From an uncultured archaeon (GTDB taxonomy: Archaea > Hadarchaeota > Hadarchaeia > Hadarchaeales > WYZ-LMO6), in NCBI GenBank assembly GCA_938074535.1, contig CALJER010000008.1:23523-87522 (forward strand): a stretch of DNA of 64,000 nt, given 5' to 3'. The notes beneath the pieces are model-generated. The model was given only the letters and a program-made list of their open reading frames with translations. It was not told the origin of the DNA and did no database searches. The number at the start of each line of letters is the position of its first letter. The stretch's first letter is position 1. Of this stretch, positions 46,783-63,429 are shown piece after piece. The position numbers were made by a program, and so were the translations under genes.

Positions 46783-49130
46783 GCTGGGCTCCTCCACGCC
46801 CTCCTCAGCTCCTCCGCCCCCACCTCCCACTTCTTCCCCCCCCTCCCCACCCTTAGGAGGCCTTCCTCCAACACCCGGCCTATCCTAGAGGCCCTCCTCC
46901 CCGCCACCCTCCTGAACTCCTCCTCCTTCTCCTTCTTCACCTCCAGCAGGAACCTGCTGTTGGACTCGGAGAAGAGGAGGAAGTCCTCCCTCAGCCTGCC
47001 CCCGGAGGGCACCAGCGAGAGGTCCACCTCCGCCCCCACCTCCCCGCCCAGCACCATCTCGGCCAGAGCCACTGCCAGTCCCCCCTCGGAGAGGTCGTGA
47101 CACGCCCTCACCAGTCCCCTCTGCAGGGCCTCCTCCACCACCCCCAGGTTCCTCCTGGCTTCCCCGAGCCTCACCTTGGGAACGCTCTTCCCCAGGTATC
47201 CCAGCAGGGCATAGTACTCCGAGCCGCCCAGCTCCGGGAAGGTGGTTCCCACGAGGTAAAGGGGATCTCCCTCCCTCTTCAGCTCCACGGAAACGGCCTT
47301 TTTCACCTCGGGTATCACCCCCACCGCTGTGATCAGGAGGGTGGGGGTGACGGGTCCCAAAGGGGACTCGTTGTACAGGCTGTCCTTTCCCGAGATGAAG
47401 GGGGTTCCGAGGCCCCTGGCGAAGCGATAGCATGCCTCGCAGGCCCTGACGAGCGAACCGAGCTGCTCCTCCCTCTCGGGGCTGCCCCACACGAAGTTGT
47501 CCAGCAGGGCTATCCTTCTTCCCCCCACCGCCACGTTGTTCCTCACCGCCTCCTCCAGGCTCGAAGCCGCCATCCAGTAGGGATCTATCTTTCCGTACCT
47601 GGGCTTCAGCCCGCAGGAGAGGACCACCCCCTTCTCCGAAGCGGGGAGGGGCTTCAGCACCACTCCATCGTTGGGCGCCCCGTGCTCACCCTGCAGGGGC
47701 TTGAGGACGGTTCCTCCCTGGACCTCGTGGTCATACGTCCTGATGACCTCCTCCCTGCTGCACAGGTTGGGGGAGGAGAGGAGCCTGAGAAGGACTTTCC
47801 TGGGCTCGGGAGGGGAGAAGCTGGGCTCCTCCAGGGAGGGCGCCCTATACTCCCCCCTCCTCTCCACGAGGGGAGGGGAAAAGAGAAAGTCCAGATCCAG
47901 CTCGGCCACCCTGTGCCCCCTGTAGAAGACCCTGAGCGGACCTTCTTCCATGAACCTCCCGATGGGGGTGGCCTCCACCTCCTCCTCCTCGAAAATCCCC
48001 ACCACCTCCTCCAGGTTCTCGGGCGGGACGCTCAGGGCCATCCTTTCCTGGGATTCCGAGACCCAGATCTCCCAGGGCCTCATCCCCGAGTACTTGAGCG
48101 GAACCTTCTCCAGCCACACCTCCACCCCGCATCCCGCCTCCCTCGCCATCTCCCCGCTGGCGCAGGAAATCCCCCCTCCCCCAAGGTCGGTGATGGAACT
48201 GGCGAGACCCCTGTCCGCTATCTCCAGGATTCCCCTCCTGAGCTTTTCCTCCTCTATGGGATCGGGGATCTGAACGGCCGGCCTGGAGACCTCCTCAGAC
48301 TCCTCGGAGAGTTCCAGCGAGGCGAAGGTAACCCCGTGGATGCCATCCCTCCCCGTCCTTCCCCCCGCCAGCACCAGCAGGTCCCCAGGCTTCGTCCTCT
48401 TCACGTAGTTCTTGAGGGGGAGGAGCCCCACACACCCGCAGTACACCACGGGGTTGCCCACGTAGCTCTCGTCGAAGTAGATGGCCCCGGCCACGGTGGG
48501 AATGCCCATGTTGTTTCCGTAGGCCCCTATCCCGGCCACCACACCCCTGTAGACGTAGCGGGGATGCTTGACCCCGGGGGGGAGTCTGTCGTAGGGGAAG
48601 TTGAGGGGACCGAACCCCAGCACATCCAAGCAGGCTATGGGCTTCGCCCACACGCCCAGGATGTCCCTGATCACCCCACCCACCCCCGTGGCCGCCCCGC
48701 CGAAGGGCTCGATGGCCGAGGGGTGATTGTGTGTCTCCACCTTCACGGCGAGAGCGTGACCGTCCTCGAACTCCACGATCCCAGCGTTGTCTCTAAAGGT
48801 GGAGACGCACCAGGGGGGGGAAAGCTCCTCCGTGGCCCTGGCTATGAAGTCCCTGAAGAGCCTGACCCTCCTCCTCCCCACCCTCACCGTCCCCTTGAAG
48901 GTCTTGTGGAAGCAGTGCTCGGACCAGGTTTGGGCAATCCCCTGCAGCTCCACGTCGGTGGGGTCCCTGCCCTTCCTGGAGAAGTACCTGCGGCACTCCT
49001 CCATTTCCCTCAGGCTCATGGCCAGGCCCATTTCCCGGCTTATCCGGGAAAGCTCCTCCCTGCCCGCCCCCCGCAAGCCTATCTCGTACAGCTCGAAGGG
49101 GAGCGGAAGCCTCCTGTAGAGCTCGCTCAA
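46776..49130 (-). CDS. purL: FGAM synthase II (large subunit)
   Basis: Tandem AIRS-like domains and a conserved N-terminus. Confidence 0.9.
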   Translation of the reverse strand: MSELYRRLPLPFELYEIGLRGAGREELSRISREMGLAMSLREMEECRRYFSRKGRDPTDVELQGIAQTWSEHCFHKTFKGTVRVGRRRVRLFRDFIARATEELSPPWCVSTFRDNAGIVEFEDGHALAVKVETHNHPSAIEPFGGAATGVGGVIRDILGVWAKPIACLDVLGFGPLNFPYDRLPPGVKHPRYVYRGVVAGIGAYGNNMGIPTVAGAIYFDESYVGNPVVYCGCVGLLPLKNYVKRTKPGDLLVLAGGRTGRDGIHGVTFASLELSEESEEVSRPAVQIPDPIEEEKLRRGILEIADRGLASSITDLGGGGISCASGEMAREAGCGVEVWLEKVPLKYSGMRPWEIWVSESQERMALSVPPENLEEVVGIFEEEEVEATPIGRFMEEGPLRVFYRGHRVAELDLDFLFSPPLVERRGEYRAPSLEEPSFSPPEPRKVLLRLLSSPNLCSREEVIRTYDHEVQGGTVLKPLQGEHGAPNDGVVLKPLPASEKGVVLSCGLKPRYGKIDPYWMAASSLEEAVRNNVAVGGRRIALLDNFVWGSPEREEQLGSLVRACEACYRFARGLGTPFISGKDSLYNESPLGPVTPTLLITAVGVIPEVKKAVSVELKREGDPLYLVGTTFPELGGSEYYALLGYLGKSVPKVRLGEARRNLGVVEEALQRGLVRACHDLSEGGLAVALAEMVLGGEVGAEVDLSLVPSGGRLREDFLLFSESNSRFLLEVKKEKEEEFRRVAGRRASRIGRVLEEGLLRVGRGGKKWEVGAEELRRAWRSPAW

Positions 49131-49133
49131 CCC

Positions 49134-49388
49134 TCACCTCCCCAGCTTCCTGACCTCAAAGGAGTAGTCGTCCTTCACGGGATTGGAGAGGAGCTTTCTG
49201 CACATCTCTTCTGTGAGCTTCCTGGCCTCCTGCAGGCTGGAGGCGGTGAGCTCTATCTCGTAAACCTTCGCCACCCCCACGCGGCGTACCCTGTACCTAA
49301 GGTCCTGCAGGGCCCTCCTGGTGCTCTCCCCCTCCGGGTCCAGGTAGCCTGGTTTCAACCTCACCTCCACCCTGCTCAGGTACCTCAT
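49134..49388 (-). CDS. purS: FGAM synthase PurS subunit
   Basis: 84 aa; VEVRLKPGYLDPEGESTRRAL signature. Confidence 0.8.
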   Translation of the reverse strand: MRYLSRVEVRLKPGYLDPEGESTRRALQDLRYRVRRVGVAKVYEIELTASSLQEARKLTEEMCRKLLSNPVKDDYSFEVRKLGR

Positions 49389-49392
49389 CCCC

Positions 49393-50529
49393 TCACCCGT
49401 ACTCGAACTTTCCCGCCCCGCTCTTTATGATCACCCGATTCCTCCCCTTTCCCCTTTCGCACCTGCCTATCACCCTCGCCTCCAGCTTAAACCCCTCTGA
49501 AACCCTCACCACCTCCTCGGCATCCCCGGGATCCACCACCAGCTCGAAGCCCACGCCCATGTTGAAGACCTCGTACATCTCCCTCCACCCCACCCTTCCC
49601 TCCCTCTGCACCAGCAGGAAGATGGGATCCGGCTCGGGAAGCTGGTCCTTCACGTAGACGAGGTTCTTCCCCACCCTGAGGCTCTTGGTGAGACCCCCGC
49701 CCGTGTTGTGCACCATGAGCTTCACCCCTTCCCCCACCCTCCTGAGGACTCTCAGGACCACGGGAGCGAAGAGGCGGGTGGGGGAGAGGATGGCCTCCCC
49801 CACCGTCATGCCAAGCTCGTCCAGGTAATCGTCGAACCTGAACCTTCCACGGTACCTTCCCCGGTCCACCAGCTCCGGATACTTCCTGGTGTACTCCCCC
49901 CTCATGAGAACGTGCCTGGCTAGGGTGATGCCGTTGCACATCATCCCGCTGTTCTCTCTCTTCTCGTACCTCGTCCTTCCCCCGCTCCTGAGGCCCACGA
50001 TGAGGTCGCCTGCCCTTACCCTCTCCCCCCTCCTCACCTCCGACAGCCTCACCCTGGCAGCCAGAACGCCGGCGAGGTCCAGCGTCCTCACCTGGTCGGG
50101 AAGGTCGGCCGTCTCCCCGCCCAGGAAAGGTATCTCCAGCCCCAGGGCCTCGAGCTCCTTGAGGACCCTCCGGAAACCTGAGACCATGTGGAAGAGGAGC
50201 TCGCGCTTGGGGAGAACACGCGGGTTGAGGGTGAGGTAGTCCGCAAAGGCGAGGGGGCGGAAGGGACCCACGCAGACCACATCGTCCACATTCATGGCCA
50301 GAACATCCTGAGCCAGTCCCTCGAACCAGGACGGGTCACCCGTTTCCCTCCAGTGGAGATAGCTCTGCTGGGGCTTGCTCCCCGCTCCGTCCGCGTGGAG
50401 GACCAGGCCCGTCTCCCTTCCCTCCCTCCCCACCGGGCAGAAGGGCATCAGATCCGCATCCAGGAGGGGGAGGAAGAACTCCGTGCCCTCCTTCTTCGCA
50501 TCCACCCCCAGGGAGCGGTAGAGGCTCAC
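49393..50529 (-). CDS. purM: AIR synthase (PurM-like)
   Basis: GVDAKKEG...LVLHADGAGSK N-domain and AIRS C-domain. Slightly longer than typical PurM. Confidence 0.7.
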   Translation of the reverse strand: MSLYRSLGVDAKKEGTEFFLPLLDADLMPFCPVGREGRETGLVLHADGAGSKPQQSYLHWRETGDPSWFEGLAQDVLAMNVDDVVCVGPFRPLAFADYLTLNPRVLPKRELLFHMVSGFRRVLKELEALGLEIPFLGGETADLPDQVRTLDLAGVLAARVRLSEVRRGERVRAGDLIVGLRSGGRTRYEKRENSGMMCNGITLARHVLMRGEYTRKYPELVDRGRYRGRFRFDDYLDELGMTVGEAILSPTRLFAPVVLRVLRRVGEGVKLMVHNTGGGLTKSLRVGKNLVYVKDQLPEPDPIFLLVQREGRVGWREMYEVFNMGVGFELVVDPGDAEEVVRVSEGFKLEARVIGRCERGKGRNRVIIKSGAGKFEYG

Positions 50530-51395
50530 CCCTTCCCCTCCAGCGCCTCCGAAGCTAGGAGGGTGTTATGGAGGAGCATCACGCGCGTCATGGGGCCCAC
50601 CCCGCCCGGCACGGGGGTGAGGTATGAGGCTCTGCGGCTCACGCCCTCGAAGTCCGCGTCCCCCACCAGCTTCCCGCTCACGTAGTTCATGCCCACATCC
50701 ACCACCACGGCACCCTCCCCCACCATCTCGGCCGTGAGGACGAAGGAGGGTCTCCTCCCCACCGCCGAAACCAGCAACCTGGCCTCCCTGGTCCTCTCCC
50801 CCAGGTTCCTCGTCTTGGAGTGGCAGAGAAGGACGCTGGCATCCCTGTCCAAAAGGAGCTTGGCCAGGGGCTTGCCCACCAGATCGCTCCTGTTGATGAT
50901 GACCGCCAGCTCACCCTTCACCTCTATCCCGTACTCATCCAGCAGCCTAAGGATGCCCCTGGGGGTGCAGGGGAGGAGGCTCCTCTCGGGATCGTACTGT
51001 CCCTTCCAGAGCTTCCCCACGTTGTAGGGATGAAGACCGTCCACGTCCTTCTGGGGGGAAATCTCCTCCACCAGGCGCCTAGGGTCCAGCTGCGGCGGCA
51101 CGGGAAGCTGCAGGAAAATCCCGTGAACATCCTCTTCCTCGTTCAGGCGGTGGATGAGTTCCCGGAGCTCCCCCTCCTCCGCCGAGGAGGGGAAAGTGTA
51201 AAGCCTGAAGGAAATTCCCACCTCCGCGCAGTCCCTCCTTTTTCCCTCCACGTAGACCCTGGAGGCCGGGTTGTCCCCGACCAGCAGGGTGGCCAGGGTG
51301 GGGGCCACTCCCTTCCTCTTCAGGGCCGAGACCCTCCCGCGCAGCTCCCCCTTGATCTCCTCCGCCAGGGCCTTTCCGTCCATAAGCACGACCAT
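50526..51395 (-). CDS. folD: Bifunctional methylene-THF dehydrogenase / methenyl-THF cyclohydrolase
   Basis: LDGKALAEEI N-terminus, VGDNPASRVYV, and the GGVGPMT Rossmann region. Confidence 0.85.
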   Translation of the reverse strand: MVVLMDGKALAEEIKGELRGRVSALKRKGVAPTLATLLVGDNPASRVYVEGKRRDCAEVGISFRLYTFPSSAEEGELRELIHRLNEEEDVHGIFLQLPVPPQLDPRRLVEEISPQKDVDGLHPYNVGKLWKGQYDPERSLLPCTPRGILRLLDEYGIEVKGELAVIINRSDLVGKPLAKLLLDRDASVLLCHSKTRNLGERTREARLLVSAVGRRPSFVLTAEMVGEGAVVVDVGMNYVSGKLVGDADFEGVSRRASYLTPVPGGVGPMTRVMLLHNTLLASEALEGKG

Positions 51396-51403
51396 GGTCT
51401 CCC

Positions 51404-52852
51404 TCAGAAGGAGGGGGCAGCCTTCTTCCCCAGCCTCTCCGCGTACCTGGAAAGCACCGGATTCACCTCCCTCTCGAGGAAGCTGTCACACCTCTCCACC
51501 GCGTCGCCCACGTGCCTGGAGGGATCAAGGACCTCTTCCAGCTCCTGGGGGGTCAGAAGGGGTCCCACCACGGGGTCCTCCCTCAGAAGGGAGGGCAGGG
51601 GATTTTCTCCCCCCTCCATGACCCTCTCCCACGCGCGGAGGGAGAGCCTCCTCAGCCTCTCGTGCATCTCCTGCCTGTTCCCCCCCTTCTTCACCAGGAG
51701 CATCAGGAGGGGCTCCAGGGCGGAAAAGGGGGAGAAGAGCTGGAGGTTCCTGGCGATCATGACCCTGTTAACCTTCATTCCCTCCACCAGGGTCTGGTAC
51801 AGGATGAGGATTTCCTCCACCGCCAAAAAGCTCTCCGCCAGGATCACCCTTCGGTTGGCGGAATCGTCCAGGGTGCGCTCCAGGAGGGTGTGGGAGGCGT
51901 TCTCCCAGGCCACCCTGGGAAGGGAGGCCACGTACCTGGCCAGGGAACACATACGCTCCGAGAGCACGGGATTGCGCTTGAAGGGCATGGCGGAGGACCC
52001 CACCTGCGCCTCCCCGAAGGGCTCGGAGAGCTCCCCCCACACGGGGGAATGCAGGTGCCTGAGGTCCGCCCCGAACTTGTGGGCGCTCTGGGCTATCCCC
52101 GCCAGAACGGAGAGGACCATGAAATCCTGCTTCCGGGGGTAGGTCTGCCCGGAGATGGCGAAGTAGGGGAGGCCCAGCTTTTCCATCACCCTGGCCTCCA
52201 CCTCCGCGGGCTTCGCCCTCTCTTCCAGCAGCCTCCTGAAGCCCGCGGAGGTCCCCACCGCCCCCTTCACCCCCTTACCCTTCAGGAACTCGGAGAGCAG
52301 GAGCTCCACCGCCCTCAGGTCCAGGAGGAGGTCCTGGGCGTAGCAGGCCAGCCTGTATCCCAGCGTAGTGGGCTCGGCAGGCTGCAGGTGGGTCCAGCCC
52401 ATGCAGACGGTGCTCCGGTGCTCCTTTATCCTGAGGGAAAGGGAGTGGAGGCAGTTGACCAGCCTGGTGAGGAGGAGGTCGAAGGCCCTCCTCATCCTCA
52501 GCACGTCTGCGTTGTCCTCTATGTCCATCGAAGTGGCCCCGAGGTGGAGTTTCCCACCGCCCCTGGGGCACTGCTGGGAGAAGACCCTCAGTTCCGCCAT
52601 GAGGTCGTGCCTTATTTCCTTCTCCACCTTCTGAGAGAGCTCCAGGTCCACATGTTCCTTTCCCGCCTTCTCCCTGATCTCCCTCAGCTCCTCCTCGGAA
52701 ATCAGTCCGTACTCCGCCTGGGCCTCCGCCAGGGCCCTCCACACCTTTCTCCAGAGGGCCCTGTACTCCAGCTCCGAGAAAAGGGAGCGCATCTCCTCGC
52801 TCCCGTACCTCCAGGTGAAGGGGGACAGAAAGGTTCGGTGGTCGAAGCCCAT
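51404..52852 (-). CDS. purB: Adenylosuccinate lyase
   Basis: Fumarase/ASL signature GSSAMPFKRNP. ATG at 52852 (MGFDHRTF...). The upstream 777 nt of ORF 51404..53629 was rejected. Confidence 0.85.
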   Translation of the reverse strand: MGFDHRTFLSPFTWRYGSEEMRSLFSELEYRALWRKVWRALAEAQAEYGLISEEELREIREKAGKEHVDLELSQKVEKEIRHDLMAELRVFSQQCPRGGGKLHLGATSMDIEDNADVLRMRRAFDLLLTRLVNCLHSLSLRIKEHRSTVCMGWTHLQPAEPTTLGYRLACYAQDLLLDLRAVELLLSEFLKGKGVKGAVGTSAGFRRLLEERAKPAEVEARVMEKLGLPYFAISGQTYPRKQDFMVLSVLAGIAQSAHKFGADLRHLHSPVWGELSEPFGEAQVGSSAMPFKRNPVLSERMCSLARYVASLPRVAWENASHTLLERTLDDSANRRVILAESFLAVEEILILYQTLVEGMKVNRVMIARNLQLFSPFSALEPLLMLLVKKGGNRQEMHERLRRLSLRAWERVMEGGENPLPSLLREDPVVGPLLTPQELEEVLDPSRHVGDAVERCDSFLEREVNPVLSRYAERLGKKAAPSF

Positions 52853-52906
52853 TCTCCCTCCCTTTTCTTGGAAGGTTTTTAACTTTGGGGAGGAGAAAAG
52901 GGGAGA
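52853..52906. promoter_or_regulatory. Divergent purB / purH promoter region (GTTTTTAAC about 25 nt upstream of the purH ATG)
   Basis: AT-rich box in an otherwise GC-rich spacer. Confidence 0.4.
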
Positions 52907-54439
<1,533 letters not shown>

Positions 54440-54501
54440 CGCCCTCCGGCTCTTACCGGACCCCGGCGACCACGCCTGAAAGAGGGGAACCCCGCAAGCC
54501 T

Positions 54502-55029
54502 TCAGCGGAGGGGCTCCACACCCTCCAAATCGCTCAATTCCCCCCTAGTCTCCTTCGCCCAGACCGCCCTCACCCTCATCCCGATGTGCACTTCTTTCGG
54601 ATCCGCACCTATCAACAGAGTGCCCAAGTTGGAATCGGCGCCGTCGAATTTGACGAAAACGGGAATAATAACCTCATCCTCCTGGATGAGGCCCTGCTCC
54701 ACGGGATCCATCCCCAGCACCTTGATCTTCCCCCTTTTGATGGGCGGGCTTATGATGAAGCAGGTGACGGTACCTACGTCGGAAACCACCACCCTACCCT
54801 CCATCTTCCTGTGGCACCTCCCGCACAGGTTCCTGGGAGGCACTATCACCTTCCCGCATCCGAAGCACAGAGAGCCCACCAGCTTCCTCTGTTTTAAACC
54901 CTCCACGAATTCTTCGAGGAGTCTGTTGGCCTTCCAGGTGTAGGCCCCTATGTTCCACTCCCCCTCCACGCCCAGGGTTTCCGGTCTTTCCTCTTTGAGG
55001 TATGGCATCCCCTCACCTCGGAGAGTCAC
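54502..55029 (-). CDS. DUF35 (Zn-ribbon + OB-fold) protein, partner of thiolase-like enzymes
   Basis: CFGCGKVIVPPRNLCGRC rubredoxin-like ribbon followed by an OB fold. Confidence 0.75.
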   Translation of the reverse strand: MTLRGEGMPYLKEERPETLGVEGEWNIGAYTWKANRLLEEFVEGLKQRKLVGSLCFGCGKVIVPPRNLCGRCHRKMEGRVVVSDVGTVTCFIISPPIKRGKIKVLGMDPVEQGLIQEDEVIIPVFVKFDGADSNLGTLLIGADPKEVHIGMRVRAVWAKETRGELSDLEGVEPLR

Positions 55030-56254
55030 CCAGCACCGTCACCGTGGTGTAGTTCGTCACTCCCCCCCATCCGTGGGCCACGGCGTTCCTGACCTCCTTC
55101 GGGACCTGGTGCTCCTCGGCCTTTCCCATCACCTGCAGAGCGGCTTCCAGGATCCTCTGTAAGGCGGAAGACCCTATGGCGTTCGTGGCGAGAACCCCCC
55201 CGGAGGGATCCGTCGGCATTCTGCCGTCGATCTCCATTTCCCCCTCCTCGAGGGCCACCCAGGCCTTTCCCTCGTCAAAAAGCCCCAGCCTCTCGGCGAA
55301 GATGAGCTCCTGACTTGGGAAGGGCTGGTAAATCTCAGCCACATCTATCTCCCTCTTCGGATCCGTTATTCCCGCCATCCTGTAGGCCTTCATCGCGGAA
55401 ACCCTGCACCCCATCTGCTCGGAGGCGTCAAGGATGCCCACTCCCCCGTAGCTCTCGCTCATGAGCTGGTTTTCCTCGTCGGAGTAGGACGCAAGCCCCT
55501 TAACCCAGGCTTTGTCCTCTTTCTTCTTTGCGATATCCTCGGCCGCCACCACAATGGCAGAAGCGCCATCACTCGCGGGGCAGATGTGTCCGAACCTGAA
55601 GGGATACGCCACCATCTCGGTCTTTGCTATGTCCTCCGGGGTGCACCCTGGCCACTGAAGGTGTGCGTACTTGTTCTTCGCGGCGTTTCTCCTGCTCTTT
55701 GCAGCCACCATGTCGAAGTGCTCGATTCTACACCCGGATCTGTGCATGTAGAACATCGCCTGGTAGACGGCGACCCCCGCAGCGGCCCCCACGACGGTGG
55801 TGGCCACCAGACTCTTGAGGTTCATCCCGTAGTTGAAGGCATGGAAGAAATTGGCAAGAGCCACGTGCAGGAGACCGGTGGTTGCCCCGGGCTCTTTGCT
55901 GTCGGAATGCTTCTCCCAGGCCACGGCCAGGACTTTGTCGTACATCCCCGAGGCCACCGCATAGATGGCCCCCTGCCCCACCGATCCCCCTGTGGTTCCA
56001 CCCGTGGCTATTCTCATAACGGGCTTTCCCGGGGCGCCTATCCAATCCCCAATCCACTGGTCTGGCTGGGCGACGCCGCCGAACCCCTGCATGTTCCCCA
56101 CCACGATGGCGTCAATCTCCTCTGGGGTTACCTGGGCATCCTCCATGGCCCTCCAGGCTGCCTCTTCAATCATTTCAGGCAGGCTGACATCCCTTCTCTT
56201 GCTCGAATGCTTGGTCTGTCCGCATCCTATTATGGCGACATTCCTGAACATCAT
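55013..56254 (-). CDS. Thiolase-like protein (SCP-x/Ltp-type fold) lacking the nucleophilic Cys and the C-terminal His/Cys catalytic residues
   Basis: Thiolase-fold glycine-rich motifs. At the N-x2-C-x-SG position it reads RIATGGTTGG. The GHP position reads TNAIGSS and the GMC position reads GWGGVTNY, judged by eye. Confidence 0.7.
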   Translation of the reverse strand: MMFRNVAIIGCGQTKHSSKRRDVSLPEMIEEAAWRAMEDAQVTPEEIDAIVVGNMQGFGGVAQPDQWIGDWIGAPGKPVMRIATGGTTGGSVGQGAIYAVASGMYDKVLAVAWEKHSDSKEPGATTGLLHVALANFFHAFNYGMNLKSLVATTVVGAAAGVAVYQAMFYMHRSGCRIEHFDMVAAKSRRNAAKNKYAHLQWPGCTPEDIAKTEMVAYPFRFGHICPASDGASAIVVAAEDIAKKKEDKAWVKGLASYSDEENQLMSESYGGVGILDASEQMGCRVSAMKAYRMAGITDPKREIDVAEIYQPFPSQELIFAERLGLFDEGKAWVALEEGEMEIDGRMPTDPSGGVLATNAIGSSALQRILEAALQVMGKAEEHQVPKEVRNAVAHGWGGVTNYTTVTVLGDSPR

Positions 56255-57396
56255 CCCTCACCCCCAAGAATGAAAACCCAGTTCTTCTGGGCACACATCC
56301 CGAACTGGCCGTGAGCCAGGGCCCTTCGCACACCCGGAATCTGGTACTCACCCGCCTCGCCCCTTATTTGCTTGGCGGCCTCCACCATCCTCACCAGGCC
56401 CGTCGCGCAAACCGGATCGGCCGCGAGAGCCCCACCGCTGGGGTTAACGGGGATTTCACCGCCCTTCTCCGTTGCCCCCCTCTCCAAGAGGACCTTGCCC
56501 TTGCCCCTCCTGCAGAGGCCCAGGGCCTCGTATATCATCAGCTCCTCGTGGGCAAATTTTTCCGAAACTTCGAAGACGTCAAGCTCCGCGTAGGGATCCC
56601 TTATCCCCGCCATCTCATAGGCATCCTTTGCCGCCTTACGCAGGGAATCAAGCTCGAGGAGGTTCCTGTCACGGAGGTAGAAGTCCTGGCAGACGCCTAC
56701 CCCCTCTATCCAGACGGGAGTGTCGGTGATCTCCTTTGCCTTTTCTTCCGAGGCCAGAACCAGGGCACAGGCGCCGTCGCTGATGGGGGACATCATCAAC
56801 TCCCTTATGGGATGGTAATAAAGTTTGGAGCCGAGCACCTCCTCCACAGTCAGGTCCGGCATCCTCCTCTGGGCAAAGGGGTTCTTCGCGGCATTCGAGA
56901 GATTCTTGACGGAAACCATCGCGATTTCCTCTTCGGAGACTCCGTAGGAGGACATGTACATCCTAGCTTGGATAGCAGCGGCTGAAACATCGTTGAGAAC
57001 TCCTATCTGCCTGTCAAAGAGGGGATCCAAAGTGTAGAAGGATACTTGGTGTGGGTTGAAGGTCGACCCCTGAGTGTGGGCCTCCACCAGAGCTACGTCA
57101 TGTACACCGGAGAGAATCCTCATGAAAGCGTACCAAGCCGCGGAGGTACCATCTTCCTCTGTTTTCGATTCGTCCTTCAGGTAGGCCCCCACCGCCATGC
57201 TGAGAAAAACGCTTGAAATGGTCCTGCCGTCCAGAAAGTCCGTGGAGGCCGTGACCACGGTATCCACCTCCCCGCGCGTGATTCCCGCGTGCGAGAGGGC
57301 CTCTTTGACAACCTCAAAAACCATGTCCTCCCTGGTCTTTTGCATATCGAACTGATGTTGGGTCTGAGCGTAGCCCACTATGGCGACTCTCCTCAA
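56251..57396 (-). CDS. Thiolase-like protein (SCP-x/Ltp-type) lacking the N-terminal nucleophilic Cys
   Basis: No Cys in the first about 110 residues; the C-terminal GMCAQ and NPSGG motifs are retained. Confidence 0.7.
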   Translation of the reverse strand: MRRVAIVGYAQTQHQFDMQKTREDMVFEVVKEALSHAGITRGEVDTVVTASTDFLDGRTISSVFLSMAVGAYLKDESKTEEDGTSAAWYAFMRILSGVHDVALVEAHTQGSTFNPHQVSFYTLDPLFDRQIGVLNDVSAAAIQARMYMSSYGVSEEEIAMVSVKNLSNAAKNPFAQRRMPDLTVEEVLGSKLYYHPIRELMMSPISDGACALVLASEEKAKEITDTPVWIEGVGVCQDFYLRDRNLLELDSLRKAAKDAYEMAGIRDPYAELDVFEVSEKFAHEELMIYEALGLCRRGKGKVLLERGATEKGGEIPVNPSGGALAADPVCATGLVRMVEAAKQIRGEAGEYQIPGVRRALAHGQFGMCAQKNWVFILGGEG

Positions 57397-57400
57397 AGGC

Positions 57401-57877
57401 TCACCTCGAGGGTTTGAAGTATTCTATGTCCGCCAGCTCGCCTCTGGTTGCCTCTCTCCATTTCGGCTCCACTTCCATTCCCTCCCTCACCCCCTCGGGG
57501 TCTATCTCTCCAATCGGCATGAAGATCGTGGAATCGGCTCCTTCCAGCTTTATGGCCCCTATCACCCTTGGTTTTTCCAGGTCCACAAAATTCCCCTCCC
57601 CATCCAGCCCAACATAGGCCGTGGTGTAACCGACCAGAACCCCCCTTCCGGAAAGCTCTACCAAGTTTTTCTCCCCAAGCTTGGTCAAGCATTTTCCACA
57701 CCTCGACCTGGGCGGCACGTAGGTGTACCCACAGCTGGGGCACTTCGCCCCCAGAAGTTTCTTTTCGGCGAGTGACTTTATGAATCTCTCCATCAGAAAG
57801 CCCGTGGACCACTTGAACCGTGCAACGAAAGGCAGACCCTTTACTCGAACTATCCCTTCCCTCTCCAAATGCAACAA
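57401..57877 (-). CDS. DUF35 (Zn-ribbon + OB-fold) protein
   Basis: CPSCGYTYVPPRSRCGKC ribbon plus OB fold. Confidence 0.75.
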   Translation of the reverse strand: MLHLEREGIVRVKGLPFVARFKWSTGFLMERFIKSLAEKKLLGAKCPSCGYTYVPPRSRCGKCLTKLGEKNLVELSGRGVLVGYTTAYVGLDGEGNFVDLEKPRVIGAIKLEGADSTIFMPIGEIDPEGVREGMEVEPKWREATRGELADIEYFKPSR

Positions 57878-57965
57878 AAAAAGTCGCCTAACCCCTTTAA
57901 TAAGCCTTTCGGAAGCCGGCGGTCCAAGAGCTATTTAAGCCCCAACACGGAGAGCTGTTTGGGGA
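57878..57965. promoter_or_regulatory. Divergent promoter region with two TATA-like boxes (CTTTAATAAG, GCTATTTAAG)
   Basis: AT boxes about 25-35 nt from the acyl-CoA synthetase ATG and about 40 nt from the DUF35 start. Confidence 0.4.
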
Positions 57966-59975
57966 ATGGTCTCAGATTCTTTCTCCAGGTACAGACAAAA
58001 GTACTCAGACGGCAACAGAAGAAACAACACTTGGGGCGCCAGACTTGAGATGCTCGCCCACGTGATCCCGGACAGGAGCGCCTTCATCCAAGGAGAGAGG
58101 GAAGTGACTTGGGGGCACTTCAACGAGCGAGTTAACATGTTGGCAAACGCGTTTTTGGACCTCGGGATAAAAAAGGAAGAGAGGGTGGCCATAGTGGGCT
58201 TCAACTGCATTGAGTGGATGGAAACTTACTTCGCCGCTTCCAAGATAGGGGCCGTGCCGGTTAATGTGAACCCCAGGTTCGTTCCGGAGGAGGTCAGGTA
58301 CATCCTCGAGAACTCGGACTCGGCGGCGGTGGTTCTGGAAGGCGAATTCCTCGAAACCGTAGAAAAGGCCTGCCGGGGTCTCTCCTCGGTGAGGCACTGC
58401 ATCGTTTGGGAAGGGAGTCCCCCAGAGGGGATGCTGAGCTATGAAGAACTTCTAAAAAACCGCCCCCCCACCGAACCCGAGCTTGGGTGGGAGGTGACCA
58501 ACGAAGATTTCTGCTTTCTCTTTTACACGGGAGGAACGACCGGATATCCTAAGGGAACCGTGTGGGATTATGAAAGCAGGGTGAGGGGCTTGGATATGCT
58601 GCTTTATCACGCCATGACGCCCCTTCTGGAAAATCTGGCCAAGATGCCGGAAGGTTCATACGTTGGAACCATAAACACCCTTATCCCGCCCGAAGCAGCT
58701 GAATTCTTGCTGCCCACTTTTCAAACACCTCCCGAGTTCGAACCATGGCTGGAGCTAATCAAAACTCTGTACCCTCCCGGGTTTGAGCCCGAGGCTGAAA
58801 AGCTCACGCGATCCCTCGTGGAACTTCTCCGGTCAGTACCGGAGCCGGTAAGGGAAAAAATGATGCGGCTGATGAACACGCCGGCAGAAGAACGCGGCAC
58901 CACGCAGGAAATCTTCCGCGATCCAGCCGTCGTACACTTTTTGAAGGAAACCTTCAGAGTGCTTCTCGGCACACCGCTCGCTTACCTGCTCAACGGCTCG
59001 AGGGTAAGAATTCTGATTGCCGCACCTTTGTTCCACGGTGCAGCCTATGAAGCCAATTTTGCGTACATCGGCACTTCCGGTGCCACAAGCGTTTACCTCA
59101 CCTCCCATCGCTTTAACCCGAGAGAACTTTGGGAAACTGCGGAGAGGAGAAAAGTTAATTATATCCTCATAGTGGGGGACGCCTTTGCCATTCCCATGGC
59201 CGAGGAGCTGGAAAGAAGGAGATACGATCTCGGCTCGCTAGCGGGCATCATCTCATCCGGAGTCACCTGGTCCCCCAAAATCAAGAAAAAGCTGCTCGCA
59301 CACATGCCCAGAGGCCTGGCGCTGGACGAACTGGGGACTACGGAGTTCAGCGGTGCCCACTCCCACATCTCCACTCCTGCGGATGAAGAGATACCTGACC
59401 TCAGAATAAAAATCTCTTCGAACGGGGCCTATCCCTGCCGGGTCGTCGATCCGGAAACGTGCGCAGACACCAAGCCTGGAGAGAGGGGGGAACTCATTTA
59501 CGGAGGCTATATGGCCCTGGGATACTGGAAGGATCCGGAAAGAACCGCCAAATATTTCAGGTGGATAGACGGCAGACGCTGGTTCTTCACCGGGGATGAA
59601 GGAATTGTCGATGAGGACGGATACTTTCATTTCATAGGGAGGGGTGCTCTCGTGATCAACACCGGCGGAGAAAAAGTCTATCCTGAAGAAGTTGAAGAAA
59701 CCATCAAAACACATCCCAAGGTCAGGGATGCTATTGTGACGGGGGTTCCGGATGAAAAGTGGGGTGAGGCTGTCACGGCCCTCGTGGAGCTGAAGGTTGG
59801 AGAAGAGGCAAAAGCGGAAGAAATAGTGGAGTTCTGCAGGGGAAGGCTGGCGGGATACAAAAAACCAAGGCATGTGATCTTCGTGGAGAAAATTCCCAGA
59901 TCCGCCAGCGGAAAAATAGAGAGGGGGGAGATAAAGAAAATGGCGGAAAAAATACTTAAATCTGGGAAGTCCTAA
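57966..59975 (+). CDS. AMP-forming acyl-CoA synthetase / fatty-acid-CoA ligase
   Basis: YTGGTTGYPKG AMP-binding motif; YGGYMALGYW, GDEG and KxPRxxSGKI C-terminal motifs. Confidence 0.8.
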   Translation: MVSDSFSRYRQKYSDGNRRNNTWGARLEMLAHVIPDRSAFIQGEREVTWGHFNERVNMLANAFLDLGIKKEERVAIVGFNCIEWMETYFAASKIGAVPVNVNPRFVPEEVRYILENSDSAAVVLEGEFLETVEKACRGLSSVRHCIVWEGSPPEGMLSYEELLKNRPPTEPELGWEVTNEDFCFLFYTGGTTGYPKGTVWDYESRVRGLDMLLYHAMTPLLENLAKMPEGSYVGTINTLIPPEAAEFLLPTFQTPPEFEPWLELIKTLYPPGFEPEAEKLTRSLVELLRSVPEPVREKMMRLMNTPAEERGTTQEIFRDPAVVHFLKETFRVLLGTPLAYLLNGSRVRILIAAPLFHGAAYEANFAYIGTSGATSVYLTSHRFNPRELWETAERRKVNYILIVGDAFAIPMAEELERRRYDLGSLAGIISSGVTWSPKIKKKLLAHMPRGLALDELGTTEFSGAHSHISTPADEEIPDLRIKISSNGAYPCRVVDPETCADTKPGERGELIYGGYMALGYWKDPERTAKYFRWIDGRRWFFTGDEGIVDEDGYFHFIGRGALVINTGGEKVYPEEVEETIKTHPKVRDAIVTGVPDEKWGEAVTALVELKVGEEAKAEEIVEFCRGRLAGYKKPRHVIFVEKIPRSASGKIERGEIKKMAEKILKSGKS

Positions 59976-59982
59976 ATACTGC

Positions 59983-61206
59983 GTGAACTTTGAACTCACG
60001 GAAGAGCAATCGATATTCAGAAAAACCCTTCGGGAGTTTCTGGACAAAGAAATTTCCCCCATCGCGGACAAAAGGGACAGAAAGGGGCCCCTCACAAAGG
60101 AAGAGGTAATAGGATTTTACAAAAAGTTCAAGGAGATAGGACTGGGCTTCGACCCGGCGACGGCGAGAGTTTGGCTGAAGGACCCAATGTTCTTTGGGAT
60201 TGCCGCGGAAGAGATAAGTCGCGTCTGGGCCAGCCTGTTCGCGGTTTGGGCGTACCAGATCTTTGCCTCCCTTGCTCCCCTAGCTTCTGAGGAAAGCGCG
60301 GAAAGGTTGGCTTCTAAACTGGAGAGGGCAGAGCTCGTCGGCTGCATGGCCGTGACCGAGCCAGGAGCCGGCTCCGACACCTCCAAACTCCAGACCACTG
60401 CGACCCTGGAAGGAGATCATTATGTCATCCAGGGAAGAAAGTGCTGGATAACCAACGCTCCCATAGCCGACGTGGCTCTGGTCGCGGCAACCGAAAAGGA
60501 TACTGGAATGCAGAACTTTTTCTTCATCGATCGGGAAGTTTCCCCCTTCGAAACGACCGAATTACATAAAATAGGTTGGAGAGCCGCGCCCACGGGCGAG
60601 ATGTTTTTTGATAACTGCCGGGTACCCAAGGAGAACGCTTTAACGGAGATGCTCTCCAAAGCCTTCACGGAGAGGGAGGAGATGAGGCCCCCCCTCTTCG
60701 ACCCAGAATCCGGGATAATGAAGTTGGCCACGAAAATTAAACCCCTGAGCGCCATCTTTTGCTTCATGCGGACGGGGATGGCGCTGCAGGCGACAGGGAT
60801 TTCGCAGGCGGCTCTGGACGCCTCGATGAAATACGCAAAGGAGAGAACTCAGTTCGGCAAACCTATCGGGAAGTTCCAGCTCGTTCAGGAGCTACTTTAT
60901 GAAATGACCGCCATAACGGAGTCCTCACGCCTTCTCGCATACCGGGCTTTGGATGTAGCGTGGAGGGGAGACCCCGAGGCGAGAAAGTGGTCTTCTTTGG
61001 CCAAATGTTACGCCTGTGAGGGCTGCATCAAAGTGACTTACAATGCGATACAGCTCCACGGCGGGATAGGTCTCTCGGAGGAACTTCCGCTGGAGAGATA
61101 CTTCCGGGATGCCAGGATAATGACCATCGGTGACGGCACCACCGAAATTCAAAAAATGATCGTGGGGCGCGAACTCCTGGGCAAGGGATTCTCGGCCTAC
61201 GCCTAG
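59983..61206 (+). CDS. Acyl-CoA dehydrogenase
   Basis: MNFELTEEQ N-terminus, the TEPGAGSD motif and the C-terminal QLHGGIG motif. GTG start. Confidence 0.9.
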   Translation: MNFELTEEQSIFRKTLREFLDKEISPIADKRDRKGPLTKEEVIGFYKKFKEIGLGFDPATARVWLKDPMFFGIAAEEISRVWASLFAVWAYQIFASLAPLASEESAERLASKLERAELVGCMAVTEPGAGSDTSKLQTTATLEGDHYVIQGRKCWITNAPIADVALVAATEKDTGMQNFFFIDREVSPFETTELHKIGWRAAPTGEMFFDNCRVPKENALTEMLSKAFTEREEMRPPLFDPESGIMKLATKIKPLSAIFCFMRTGMALQATGISQAALDASMKYAKERTQFGKPIGKFQLVQELLYEMTAITESSRLLAYRALDVAWRGDPEARKWSSLAKCYACEGCIKVTYNAIQLHGGIGLSEELPLERYFRDARIMTIGDGTTEIQKMIVGRELLGKGFSAYA

Positions 61207-61219
61207 AAGCATCACCCGT

Positions 61220-62140
61220 TCATTTGCTGGACGGTCGGGGCAGGCTGAAAAAGAAAGTCCCTTCCCTTTTCACCACCTTTACCCTTCTTTCATTCTGCAG
61301 TTTAACGAGGTGGGCCAGGACAGAATTGTATGTAAAATACGGAAATCCCCCCTCCGGATAGACCGAGTTGACGAGCTCCGAAAGGTCTTTCTCACCCTCC
61401 CCCAGAATTTCCAGCAACTTTTGTTCCGTCCTGAATTTTTGCTGAAGGATCCCGTCTATTCTCTTGTGGACCTCCCCCACCTCCCCACCATGTGAAAGAA
61501 AGGCCTTGTCTATCCTCAGCTTTTTTAGACGCTGGAGCGATTCCAAGAATTCCTCCAGGCTGCCCTGTAGGCACCCTACGAAGGGCGTCCCCCTGACCGT
61601 GATCATGTCCCCGGCGAATATGGTGCGGCTCTCCCCTTCGTAAAGACAAATGTGCCCCGGTGCATGACCGGGCGTGTGAAGAACTTTTAGGGAGAGGTCA
61701 GCCGCTCCAATGGAGTCTCCTTCCCTCAATCTCATGTCGACCTTTGCCGTCTTCACTTTCTCGTAAATGGAAGCTCGCATTCTGGCATGATCCGCGATTA
61801 TGCCAGGCATCTCGCTCAGCACTTCCTCTGGTGGGAGCTGTTTTTTCATGTCCTCTATCAAAGGCGCGGCTACTTCATGCGCCGCTATCTTAACCCCGGC
61901 TCTCTCCTTTATGGAGGCGTTCCCACCGAAATGGTCGATATGCTCATGGGTGTTCACGATCATGGAGACGTCGCTCAAATCGAACCCTATTTCCTCCAAT
62001 TGAGAGGAGAGTTCTCCCACCGATTCCTCATATCCGCTGTCTATCAAAACCGGCGTTTCGCTCTCTACTAAGAAGGCATTTACCCTCTGCAGACCCGGGA
62101 AGCTTGGCTCGAGCGATATCGTGTGTACGCGCAGCCCCAT
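61220..62140 (-). CDS. MBL-fold metallo-hydrolase with C-terminal winged-helix-like domain (paralog of 1264..2217)
   Basis: HEHIDHFGG motif and the same two-domain layout as the first MBL gene. Confidence 0.8.
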   Translation of the reverse strand: MGLRVHTISLEPSFPGLQRVNAFLVESETPVLIDSGYEESVGELSSQLEEIGFDLSDVSMIVNTHEHIDHFGGNASIKERAGVKIAAHEVAAPLIEDMKKQLPPEEVLSEMPGIIADHARMRASIYEKVKTAKVDMRLREGDSIGAADLSLKVLHTPGHAPGHICLYEGESRTIFAGDMITVRGTPFVGCLQGSLEEFLESLQRLKKLRIDKAFLSHGGEVGEVHKRIDGILQQKFRTEQKLLEILGEGEKDLSELVNSVYPEGGFPYFTYNSVLAHLVKLQNERRVKVVKREGTFFFSLPRPSSK

Positions 62141-62232
62141 CTCGGACTCACCACTTTTCTTCTCACCGCTACTTAAATTTGCGGACAGGATCGGGAAGAA
62201 AAGCTTTTTATACTGCGGGGCCCGGGAAAAAT

Positions 62233-63309
62233 GTGATAAAAACCAGACTTTGTGACCTCCTGGAAATAAAACACCCCATCATCCAAGGGGGCATGGGGCC
62301 CTTCCAAACGAACAAGCTAGCAGTTGCGGTTGCAAACGCCGGAGCGCTCGGGGTTATAAGCACCAGCGGAATCGTGCTCAAGAGCATGGGCGTGGATCTA
62401 GGCCCCCTTGCACCCGAAGGGGGTGACCCCTACGAGGTGTTGAGAAGAATCATCCACCAAACCGTGGAAGCCACGGAAGAGCACGGAAAAATCGGAATAA
62501 ACGTGATGGTCTCGGCCGAAATGATGGACGCTGCGAGGGAGCTCGTACGGGCCGCCGTCGACGCCAGGGGCGAGAACCCCTCGGTCCAAAAAAAGCTGAA
62601 GGCGATAATCACCTCGGCGGGTGACCCTCTGCCCTGGACCGACGTGATAAAGCCCTCCGGCCTCACATGGCTGCACGTAGTTCCCTCGGTTCGCGCGGCC
62701 AAAAGGTGTGAAAAGGCGGGAGTAGACGTGATAATAGCCTCGGGACAAGAGGGAGGGGGACACACCGCTTGGGAGCCGGTTCACTCGATGGTTTTGATCC
62801 CAGCTGTCGTCGAGGCCGTCAAAACTCCAGTGGTAGGGGCGGGAGGATTCGCGGACGGGGCTTCCCTGGTAGCGGCTTTGGCCCTGGGGGCTGTGGGAGT
62901 CCAGATGGGTACAAGATTCGTAGCGACCAAGGAAGCCGACTTCGTGCAGATGTGGAAGGAAAGAATAGTGAAAAGTGGGGAAAGAGACACGATCATCGCA
63001 AGGGGTTTTGTGGGACCCTTGAGGTATCTGAAGAATAAGGCCTCCGTCGAACTCGCTGAACAGACGCTGGAAAAAATTCCCAACCTGTTTTTGGGGCGTC
63101 CGGACGTCTCCCTGGATCCCGAAATCCTCAGCAAAGAGCTTGAGGGAACCATGGCCCTCCTGGGGGATGATGATGAGAGGGCCCTGTTTTACGGCGGGGA
63201 GGTCGCGGGGAGGATATCCGACATACCCACCGCCAGGGAACTCATTGAGAGGATAGTGAGAGAAGCGGAAGAAATTTTGAGGGAAATGCCAAAAAAATTC
63301 CTGAGATAG
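62233..63309 (+). CDS. Nitronate monooxygenase / FabK-like FMN-dependent enoyl reductase family
   Basis: IKHPIIQGGMGPF and the ASGQEGGGH motif. GTG start at 62233 with TATA CTTTTTATAC at about 62200-62209. Confidence 0.8.
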   Translation: MIKTRLCDLLEIKHPIIQGGMGPFQTNKLAVAVANAGALGVISTSGIVLKSMGVDLGPLAPEGGDPYEVLRRIIHQTVEATEEHGKIGINVMVSAEMMDAARELVRAAVDARGENPSVQKKLKAIITSAGDPLPWTDVIKPSGLTWLHVVPSVRAAKRCEKAGVDVIIASGQEGGGHTAWEPVHSMVLIPAVVEAVKTPVVGAGGFADGASLVAALALGAVGVQMGTRFVATKEADFVQMWKERIVKSGERDTIIARGFVGPLRYLKNKASVELAEQTLEKIPNLFLGRPDVSLDPEILSKELEGTMALLGDDDERALFYGGEVAGRISDIPTARELIERIVREAEEILREMPKKFLR

Positions 63310-63429
63310 ACGGGGCAGGATACTCGGCTACCCACGTCTGGTCCATCCGGCTCGACGCCGATTCGAGAGCGGATGCTGGCAGGATGGTTCCGTAGAAATG
63401 CTTATACGCTTCCCCTGCAGGATTTTTTG

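Follow-up and report, generated by a model that had tools for sequence, protein, structure and literature searches.

Cysteine-less thiolase-like proteins paired with DUF35 proteins in a Hadarchaeota genome: a candidate heteromeric retro-aldolase

A stretch of 64,000 nucleotides of contig CALJER010000008.1 from an uncultured archaeon of Hadarchaeota, referred to below as the window, contains four adjacent genes that encode two different thiolase-like proteins (TLP1 and TLP2) and two different DUF35 proteins, in the order DUF35a-TLP1-TLP2-DUF35b. The question raised by this locus is what reaction, if any, can be catalyzed by a pair of thiolase-fold proteins of which neither contains the nucleophilic cysteine of thiolases. 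The previous, sequence-only reading of this DNA described the four-gene arrangement, which is confirmed by the positions of all four open reading frames (ORFs) on the minus strand and by their Pfam domains, and proposed that they encode an uncharacterised system for either the cleavage or the condensation of CoA esters. Results of our analysis favor the first of these possibilities and provide no specific support for the second. We consider it fairly probable that the four genes encode a heterotetrameric retro-aldolase for 3-hydroxyacyl-CoA, and not a thiolase, with TLP2 as the catalytic subunit and its Tyr309 as the base.

Active-site residues of the two thiolase-like proteins

TLP1 and TLP2 were aligned with thiolases of solved structure, namely those of Methanothermococcus (6esq), Pyrococcus (7yvy), zebrafish (6hsj), and Trypanosoma (4bi9), together with a C337A mutant (4bia), and the alignment of 35 sequences placed the relevant residues in the same way as the pairwise alignments. 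Both proteins represent the SCP2-type branch of thiolases, in which the acid/base cysteine is expected in the HDCF motif and not in the C-terminal CxG loop. The segment R81-I-A-T-G-G-T-T-G-G90 of TLP2, which had been recognized by eye as the counterpart of the nucleophile motif, aligns with R-V-E-A-A-C-A-S-G-S, and the nucleophilic cysteine corresponds to Gly86. The HDCF motif is replaced in TLP2 by Y309-Q-P-F and the histidine of the GHP motif by Asn358, in agreement with the earlier remark that the C-terminal His and Cys positions are substituted in this protein. Residue conservation was counted over 114 relatives of TLP2 and 74 relatives of TLP1; Gly86, Tyr309 (as a part of the E-I-Y-Q-P-F motif), and Asn358 are invariant in 114/114 TLP2 relatives.

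In TLP1, the nucleophile loop AAC(A/S)SG is changed to K78-T79-E-E-D-G with a three-residue deletion, and the nucleophile position is occupied by Thr79. The residue in this column is V, A, T, or S, mostly Val, in all 74 relatives. The HDCF motif of TLP1 is replaced by S278-E-K-F, with S, T, or H in the first position across the relatives, and the GHP histidine by Asp327. The cysteine-free character of the first 110 or so residues of TLP1 was described correctly, as its first cysteine is residue 210. The GMC triplet, which was reported as retained, is present indeed (residues 366-368), but Cys368 persists in no more than 63 of the 74 relatives, with a replacement in the remaining 11, and thus it is not a conserved catalytic residue; for the same reason, we rejected it as a relic of a catalytic cysteine. 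Neither in TLP1 nor in TLP2 did the alignments reveal the nucleophilic cysteine of thiolases, the histidine or cysteine of HDCF, or the histidine of GHP, and the finding of a conserved cysteine at the nucleophile position of either family, which would have contradicted the earlier placement of motifs, did not occur.

In retro-aldolases of thiolase fold, the HDCF histidine is replaced by a catalytic tyrosine, as in Y294DHF of TcLtp2 and Y302DCY of CtSal, and a change of this tyrosine to phenylalanine leaves Sal virtually inactive (PMC12329534). A tyrosine in this position is present in TLP2 and not in TLP1. Additionally, Gln165 and Tyr169 of TLP2 are invariant and are separated by the same four-residue spacing as Gln161 and Tyr165 of CtSal. 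Also invariant are Gly397-Gly398 and two further polar residues of TLP2 at active-site positions, H223 and H394. Asn358 of TLP2 is located at +49 relative to Tyr309, whereas the thiolase histidine and the corresponding residue of both aldolases are located at +50, which in the alignment appears as a one-residue deletion. Among 117 full-length representatives of 50%-identity clusters that are closest to TLP2, the Gly/Tyr/x/Asn combination is the commonest (at least 35 representatives), and canonical thiolases with the Cys/His/Cys/His combination occur only at about 35% identity to TLP2 or below. In the case of TLP1, no candidate for a catalytic residue of thiolase or aldolase was found at the corresponding positions. 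Only TLP2 appears to be catalytic, and TLP1 may be a conserved partner with no catalytic role or with a different function. The residue states of TLP2 suggest an aldolase-like protein with a third solution of the active site, in which the base tyrosine would act without the tyrosine that serves as the general acid in Ltp2 or the cysteine that serves as such in Sal.

The AlphaFold2 model of TLP2 (pLDDT 81.5, pTM 0.88) is better than that of TLP1 (pLDDT 70.8). Its Foldseek matches are SCP2-type thiolases and thiolase-like proteins, with nothing closer: 6et9 (TM 0.83), 6hsp, 7yvy, ST0096 (4yzo), BbsB, and PhlC, while the aldolases Ltp2 (6ok1) and Sal (9myr) were ranked 22 and 44, respectively. 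The presence of two distinct TLPs and of two distinct DUF35 proteins, together with the fusion of DUF35 units in a single protein of actinobacteria, suggests a pseudo-symmetric DUF35a-TLP1-TLP2-DUF35b assembly, and we infer from the genes that the four proteins probably form a heterotetrameric complex.

Distribution and genomic setting of the module

In the scan of one genome per species, the module was detected in 240 genomes, which include those of Hadarchaeota, Archaeoglobi, Methanolliviera, Thermoproteota, Frey- and Jordarchaeia, Dehalococcoidia, Deltaproteobacteria/Thermodesulfobacteriota, and Actinomycetota. TLP1 and TLP2 are each represented by more than 100 clusters of orthologues of 50-94% identity, and their nearest named relatives are those of Candidatus Hadarchaeales (91% and 94% identity, respectively). 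TLP1 is 72-91% identical to the orthologues of Dehalococcoidia and Hadarchaeales, and archaeal and bacterial copies of the module are 75-80% identical to each other. Over the 80 related loci that were used for all counts of synteny and neighbours, the four genes co-occur in essentially all, namely in every one with a sufficient flank, and DUF35a accompanies the TLP pair in 74. These loci come from Hadarchaeota, Archaeoglobi, Asgard archaea, Methanolliviera, Dehalococcoidia, Deltaproteobacteria, and Actinomycetota. Two orders of genes are fixed. Archaea and Actinomycetota have DUF35a-TLP1-TLP2-DUF35b, and the module of Dehalococcoidia and Deltaproteobacteria reads TLP1-TLP2-DUF35b-DUF35a. The module is thus widespread and highly conserved in both prokaryotic domains, and a gene of the beta-keto acid cleavage enzyme (BKACE) family is its recurrent fifth partner, neither of which was a part of the sequence-only reading.

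In the neighbor-joining (NJ) tree, the subtrees of TLP1 and TLP2 share their topology, which indicates that both genes have been inherited as a unit. The TLP pair of the window nests with bootstrap 100 among the copies of Dehalococcoidia and Deltaproteobacteria (77-82% identity), and other Hadarchaeota metagenome-assembled genomes (MAGs) encode a 65%-identical copy that groups with those of Archaeoglobi. The GC content is 0.63-0.65 at 46800-54400 (purL, purS, purM, folD, purB, and purH) and 0.53-0.60 at 54500-64000, and its fall starts exactly at the DUF35b gene and lasts to the end of the window. This drop and the position of the pair in the tree suggest a horizontally acquired block, and a transfer between domains, in one direction or the other, is likely. 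No tRNA gene that could mark an integration site was found near the GC boundary at 54.5 kb.

Phylogeny was suggested earlier as a way to verify the assignment of these proteins. The NJ tree does separate them from true archaeal thiolases, outside of which it shows two groups, one of 'second' subunits (TLP2, proteins of Ltp3 type, and paralogues) and one of 'first' subunits (TLP1, proteins of Ltp4 type, and paralogues), but its deep nodes are weak, with bootstrap 67 for TLP2 and the Ltp3 type and 48 for TLP1 and the Ltp4 type with paralogues. Derived motifs that the subunits have in common with their Ltp counterparts speak for the same grouping. A search with the Ltp3-type protein returned about 8000 relatives. 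Judging by their residue states, the cysteine-less, tyrosine-bearing TLPs associated with DUF35 proteins are a large and almost unstudied radiation. Many of these relatives are labelled in public records as 'acetyl-CoA C-acetyltransferase', a name that annotation pipelines routinely give to proteins of thiolase fold, or 'thiolase family protein', and the former annotation is almost certainly wrong for the TLP family. In many genomes, the module is adjoined by additional paralogous cysteine-less TLPs, paired or single, which are accompanied by one DUF35 gene, for instance in loci L090 (3373-6080), L015 (2356-5653), and L042 (162-3501 and 12115-14005), and their second subunits again have the Gly/Tyr/Asn combination.

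The features of the window that are relevant to the module are listed in Table 1. The overlaps of 4-17 nt between consecutive genes that were reported earlier exist at two of the three junctions: TLP1 and TLP2 overlap by 4 nt (56251-56254) and TLP2 and DUF35b by 17 nt (55013-55029), but a gap of 4 nt lies between DUF35a and TLP1. If Met8 were the start of DUF35b, the 17-nt overlap would become a small gap. The cysteines of the predicted zinc ribbons are kept in both DUF35 proteins (C46/C49/C60/C63 of DUF35a over 63 relatives and C55/C58/C69/C72 of DUF35b over 58 relatives). The operon is transcribed divergently from the genes of acyl-CoA synthetase (ACS) and acyl-CoA dehydrogenase (ACAD), and the spacer between them contains two A/T-rich TATA-like boxes, TTTAATAA near 57896 and TATTTAAG near 57933, which would suit putative bidirectional archaeal promoters. 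A gene of an MBL-fold hydrolase is located between the ACAD gene and that of the NMO/FabK-like oxidoreductase.

Table 1. Genes of the module and adjacent features in the window
Feature	Coordinates	Strand	Description	Basis of assignment
DUF35b	54502-55029	-	175 aa, zinc-ribbon + OB-fold; last gene of the operon	Pfam zf-ChsH2 2e-08, OB_ChsH2_C weak
TLP2	55013-56254	-	413 aa, thiolase fold	Pfam Thiolase_N + Thiolase_C_1, E ~1e-33
TLP1	56251-57396	-	381 aa, thiolase fold	Pfam Thiolase_N + Thiolase_C_1 (4e-33)
DUF35a	57401-57877	-	158 aa, zinc-ribbon + OB-fold; first gene of the operon	Pfam zf-ChsH2 8e-09, OB_ChsH2_C 1e-10
Divergent intergenic spacer	57878-57965		88 bp, between the operon and the ACS-ACAD genes	Read from sequence
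Acyl-CoA synthetase (ACS)	57966-59975	+	669 aa	Pfam AMP-binding 2e-55 + AMP-binding_C; NCBIfam PRK07798 468 bits
Acyl-CoA dehydrogenase (ACAD)	59983-61206	+	407 aa	Pfam Acyl-CoA_dh_N/M/1
NMO/FabK-like FMN oxidoreductase	62104-63309	+	Start codon uncertain	Pfam NMO 3e-49
BKACE-family gene	63430-64000	+	Truncated by the end of the window	Pfam PF05853 5e-42, profile positions 1-156/274

Two observations concern other proteins of the window. In ACS, an insertion of about 135 residues splits the match to the AMP-binding profile into two stretches, one at residues 33-207 and the other starting at about residue 345. An ORF for a 741-aa protein similar to PurB (adenylosuccinate lyase), at 51404-53629 (-), has a long G/P/V/Q-rich N-terminal extension that overlaps purH of the opposite strand; the extension is almost certainly an artefact of ORF prolongation in high-GC DNA, the true start being located downstream.

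The genes most often found next to the module encode ACAD, frequently as PimC/PimD-like pairs (23/80 loci), ACS (21/80), and BKACE (17/80), followed by MaoC (10/80, of which 8 are among the 18 archaeal loci), ECH (7/80), 3-hydroxyacyl-CoA dehydrogenase (5/80), 3-oxoacid CoA-transferase A/B (5/80; above the NCBIfam cut-offs and following the module), and NMO (4/80). In 15 of the 17 BKACE-positive loci, which represent Dehalococcoidia, Archaeoglobus, and Hadarchaeota, the BKACE gene directly adjoins the module on the same strand. The series of ACS, ACAD, hydratase, and TLPs fits a pathway of the steroid type, with dehydrogenation, hydration, and retro-aldol cleavage, and BKACE together with the CoA-transferase would connect the module with beta-keto acids and acetoacetate. 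In one Hadarchaeota MAG (locus L053, 5410-10692), the genes are arranged as BKACE-DUF35a-TLP1-TLP2-DUF35b-MaoC-MaoC, which resembles the heteromeric ChsH1/ChsH2 hydratase encoded beside Ltp2.

Genes similar to those of hydantoinase B (Hydantoinase_B) and acetone carboxylase are present less than 10 kb from the module in two long contigs (L089, 13282-13600, and L090, 1-1267), of which the first encodes also a PFL-like glycyl-radical enzyme and the second a ligase of the ACAS type (similar to acetoacetyl/acetyl-CoA synthetases). As this association concerns only two or three long loci, it was dropped as evidence. A single gene call in L090, at 13565-16060 (-), combines TnpB domains similar to OrfB_IS605/Cas12f with an AMP-binding ligase, beside a Y1 transposase, and is probably an insertion of a mobile element (IS) into the ligase gene or a merged call.

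Proposed reaction and its alternatives

The invariant Tyr309, the loss of thiolase residues, and the ACS and ACAD neighbours favor a retro-aldolase similar to the Ltp2-ChsH2 complex over a thiolase, as was supposed in the sequence-only reading. In the proposed complex, the TLP1-TLP2 heterodimer would be a thiolase-fold core flanked by the two zinc-ribbon/OB-fold proteins. Tyr309 of TLP2 would serve as a general base that takes the proton of the beta-hydroxyl group, the latter being held by the main-chain NH of Gly86, which occupies the former cysteine position, and Gln165 and the backbone of Gly397 would stabilize the enolate of the acetyl- or propionyl-CoA that leaves. The cleavage between Calpha and Cbeta would yield an aldehyde or a ketone and a short acyl-CoA. 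TLP1 would keep the dimer architecture and probably contribute to the cleft for the substrate or CoA, while the zinc ribbons of DUF35 proteins would shape its entrance and may dock a hydratase. The substrate would be generated by the neighbouring ACS and ACAD and by a hydratase, the gene of which is adjacent in some relatives and would be located elsewhere in the genome studied here. The carbonyl product or its derivative may be a beta-keto acid, which BKACE would convert with acetyl-CoA to acetoacetate and a shortened acyl-CoA. One may speculate that a tertiary 3-hydroxyacyl-CoA is split by the aldolase with release of a ketone or beta-keto acid, on which BKACE acts next.

Several results weigh against a retro-aldolase. 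Ltp2 uses Tyr344 as the general acid and Sal uses Cys304 (PMC12329534), and neither residue has a counterpart in TLP2, where Asn358 and Pro311, respectively, occupy their positions and are invariant or nearly so among the 114 relatives; hence the proposed mechanism is incomplete. The equivalence of TLP2 residues with those of Ltp2 and Sal is transitive, as it was established through the HDCF motif of SCP2-type thiolases and the matching offsets. A tyrosine at the position of the HDCF histidine is also present in TbSLP, the function of which is not established (PMC12329534). The conservation of TLP1 is no weaker than that of TLP2, and its degenerate active-site loop contains charged residues that do not vary (K74, K78, E80, and D82), which a purely scaffolding role does not explain. 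No hydratase gene was found in the cluster of the window among the listed ORFs and their Pfam domains, and the neighbouring BKACE and 3-oxoacid CoA-transferase act on 3-oxo and not on 3-hydroxy compounds. Finally, the TLP family is known from genes alone, and even Ltp3-Ltp4 has been defined only genetically.

The link of the neighbours with 3-oxo compounds would suit an alternative enzyme, namely a cysteine-independent thiolase-like enzyme that acts on 3-oxoacyl-CoA by the retro-Claisen or Claisen reaction without a covalent acyl-enzyme and serves as the 'thiolase' of a 3-oxo-acid operon. In 15 loci the BKACE gene adjoins the module directly on the same strand, and it occurs also in the window, the CoA-transferase genes follow the module in five loci, and no canonical cysteine-bearing thiolase was found in the operons that were inspected directly, where the additional TLPs that were checked are cysteine-less as well. 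However, all characterised thiolases use a nucleophilic cysteine and a His/Cys pair, none of which is present in either subunit, such a mechanism would be without precedent in the thiolase fold, and the sole conserved polar replacement, Tyr309, is a hallmark of aldolases. We therefore regard this explanation as improbable. The lack of all thiolase residues in both TLPs and of any candidate catalytic residue in TLP1 could also mean that both are pseudo-enzymes, which form an inert scaffold binding acyl-CoA or lipid and organizing the dehydrogenase, hydratase, and BKACE, the more so that a DUF35 protein is documented as an assembly mediator in the fatty-acid-synthase complex of Sulfolobus. This seems quite improbable in view of the invariance of polar residues at the active-site positions of TLP2 (Y309, Q165, Y169, N358, H223, and H394) and its 75-80% identity across domains, and known complexes of cysteine-less TLPs with DUF35 are enzymes (PMC12329534).

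TbSLP, which has the YDCF motif and slowly decarboxylates malonyl-CoA (PMC12329534), brings in the possibility of an acyl-CoA decarboxylase, by which a carboxylated CoA ester would be turned into an enolate. A heterodimer of an 'active' and a 'degenerate' subunit resembles also the ketosynthase/chain-length factor (KS/CLF) pair of type II polyketide synthases, but enzymes of the CLF type have Gln at the cysteine position, which is Gly in the TLP2 family and mostly Val in the TLP1 family. Decarboxylation is very unlikely, as CtSal is devoid of such activity and the authors suggest that TbSLP itself is an aldolase (PMC12329534); no gene related to carboxylases or malonyl-CoA was found in the neighbourhood, either by Pfam in the window or in the tally of 80 loci. 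There is hardly any probability left for a thiolase of the kind that forms the archaeal complex with HMG-CoA synthase (HMGCS) and DUF35. The thiolase of Methanothermococcus is the best match in the Protein Data Bank (PDB) in both sequence and fold (29% identity, TM 0.83), and DUF35 partners are encoded next door in both cases. Contrary to TLP1 and TLP2, the thiolases of such complexes keep the cysteine of AACASG, the HDCF motif, and GHA/GHP, all three of which are replaced here. No HMGCS gene was found in the cluster of the window, the TLPs score 170-177 bits against the NCBIfam model AcCoTHIOL_METTL with the cut-off of 600, and the module occurs also in bacteria, beside catabolic genes.

A wider reading would join the retro-aldolase with its neighbours in an undescribed but widespread anaerobic route of C-C cleavage that is used where beta-oxidation is blocked, is coupled to BKACE, and involves a second activity of TLP1; as a joint proposal, it is unlikely. 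Its substrates would be, e.g., beta-branched acyl-CoAs of isoprenoid type or those with a carboxymethyl branch, which ACAD and a hydratase would convert to a tertiary 3-hydroxyacyl-CoA, to be cleaved by the complex in a retro-aldol reaction with the tyrosine base and a general acid of a new type. The released ketone or beta-keto acid would be passed to BKACE and, in some genomes, to enzymes similar to acetone carboxylases and to 3-oxoacid CoA-transferase, with acetoacetate and a shorter acyl-CoA as products. TLP1 might provide a second new activity of the thiolase fold, for instance that of the hydratase which most of these operons lack.

Hadarchaeota, Archaeoglobi, Methanolliviera, Dehalococcoidia, and Asgard archaea, which carry the module, are lineages of subsurface and sediments for which the degradation of hydrocarbons, fatty acids, and aromatic compounds is under discussion. 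The role of the module as a retro-aldolase, if true, would alter metabolic reconstructions of these organisms, would add the third active-site solution to those of thiolase-fold aldolases, and would provide the genetically defined Ltp3-Ltp4 with a tractable, thermostable relative for structural work. The link with BKACE is a concrete and testable clue to the substrate.

Comparison with known systems

The general statement of the sequence-only reading that characterised archaeal DUF35 complexes consist of a cysteine-active thiolase and HMGCS is correct as to the absence of HMGCS here but incomplete, since the above-mentioned fatty-acid-synthase complex of Sulfolobus contains a thiolase, DUF35, a reductase, and a dehydratase. 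Benzoylsuccinyl-CoA thiolase BbsAB and the acyltransferases PhlABC and MucABC are also composed of one or more thiolase-fold subunits and a DUF35 subunit, and PhlABC likewise pairs two different thiolase-fold proteins. Unlike TLP1 and TLP2, BbsB and PhlC use a catalytic cysteine, and PhlA is similar to KAS III and not to SCP2-type thiolases. The scores against NCBIfam models of BbsB (106-126 bits vs. cut-off 750) and BbsA (23 bits vs. 250) are also low. ST0096 of Sulfolobus tokodaii (4yzo), the second-best sequence match of TLP1 in the PDB (E 6e-35), is another archaeal protein of SCP2 type without the nucleophilic cysteine (DNTSGSG), but it retains the histidines of HD(M)A and GHP and groups with true archaeal thiolases in the tree.

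Ltp2-ChsH2 (6ok1), acting on the C3 side chain of steroids, and Sal-Shy (9myr), acting on the bile-acid C5 side chain, resemble the module in their active sites. In both Ltp2 and Sal, two DUF35 domains flank a homodimer (PMC12329534), and this alpha-beta-beta-alpha layout is mirrored by the gene order DUF35a-TLP1-TLP2-DUF35b. Ltp2 shares with TLP2 the cysteine-less SCP2-thiolase fold, the DUF35 partner, and the tyrosine (Y294DHF vs. Y309QPF), but it is homodimeric, has Tyr344 as the acid where TLP2 has Asn358, and its DUF35 partner is fused to a MaoC hydratase; the similarity of the two proteins is low (phmmer E 3e-17), as is the Foldseek rank of Ltp2. In Sal, the position of Tyr344 is occupied by Gln352, and an oxyanion hole composed of Gln161 and Gly391 has been proposed (PMC12329534). 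Thus Sal and TLP2 share the tyrosine base, the Gln/Tyr pair (Q161/Y165 vs. Q165/Y169), and an amide at the former histidine position (Gln352 vs. Asn358). Sal differs by the requirement for the Cys304 acid of YDCY, to which Pro311 of TLP2 corresponds, by its homodimeric structure, and by the fusion of its DUF35 to a hydratase.

The closest known relative of the module appears to be not Ltp2, which was indicated previously, but the heteromeric Ltp3-Ltp4 with a double-DUF35 protein. According to papers citing Wilbrink 2012, Ltp3-Ltp4 is a heteromeric aldol-lyase essential for the degradation of C24-branched sterol side chains. The layout published for M. tuberculosis is fadD19, echA19 ... Rv3521, ltp4 (Rv3522), and ltp3 (Rv3523); nothing useful was found in the literature on Rv3521-3523 or on the Archaeoglobus locus tags. 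A protein search of plasmid records revealed the same series in Tsukamurella: genes of an NMO-family protein, an enoyl-CoA hydratase, and an AMP-binding ligase, followed by those of a 309-aa double-DUF35 protein, a 359-aa TLP, and a 390-aa TLP. The Tsukamurella TLPs pass the NCBIfam models PRK08313 (734 bits) and PRK07937, 'lipid-transfer protein' (593 bits), and their designation as Ltp3 and Ltp4 is based on gene order and the names of these models, as a search of homologues for a named Ltp3 among actinobacterial relatives returned only 'thiolase domain-containing protein'. PRK08313 is also the best NCBIfam model for TLP2 (472 bits, below the cut-off of 514; the next model has 227). TLP1 scores 262 bits against PRK08313 and 206 bits against PRK07937 (cut-off 419), and no model fits it specifically. 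Its membership in the Ltp4 model was ruled out on score, and what remains are the shared loop motifs and the weak support in the tree.

TLP2 and the Ltp3-type protein of Tsukamurella are 38% identical and have in common T-x-G-S/T, E-I-Y-x-P-F, S/T-N-x-I-G, and the change of Cys to Gly. The identity between TLP1 and the Ltp4-type protein is 30%, and the latter also has the shortened acidic loop E-S-x-V-E-x-D and many of the residues that are invariant in TLP1. Both loci encode two different TLPs by adjacent genes and two DUF35 domains, with ACS and an NMO-family gene nearby; the ACS and NMO proteins of the window were rejected as orthologues of the fadD19-like and NMO genes of Tsukamurella (29% and 27% identity, respectively). 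The differences concern the DUF35 units, which are two separate flanking proteins in the module and are fused in one protein in actinobacteria, the association with BKACE, and the hosts, which are anaerobes from both prokaryotic domains and show no sterol genes in the DNA at hand. No sterol side-chain context (cyp125/142, fadD19, echA19, or the KstR regulon) was encountered in the window, where the neighbours are ACS, ACAD, MBL, NMO, and BKACE. The system would belong with the Ltp3-Ltp4, Ltp2, and Sal aldolases. The likeness to the Tsukamurella pair suggests that, among these, the module represents a distinct subfamily of the Ltp3-Ltp4 kind, outside the NCBIfam families that comprise the actinobacterial proteins.

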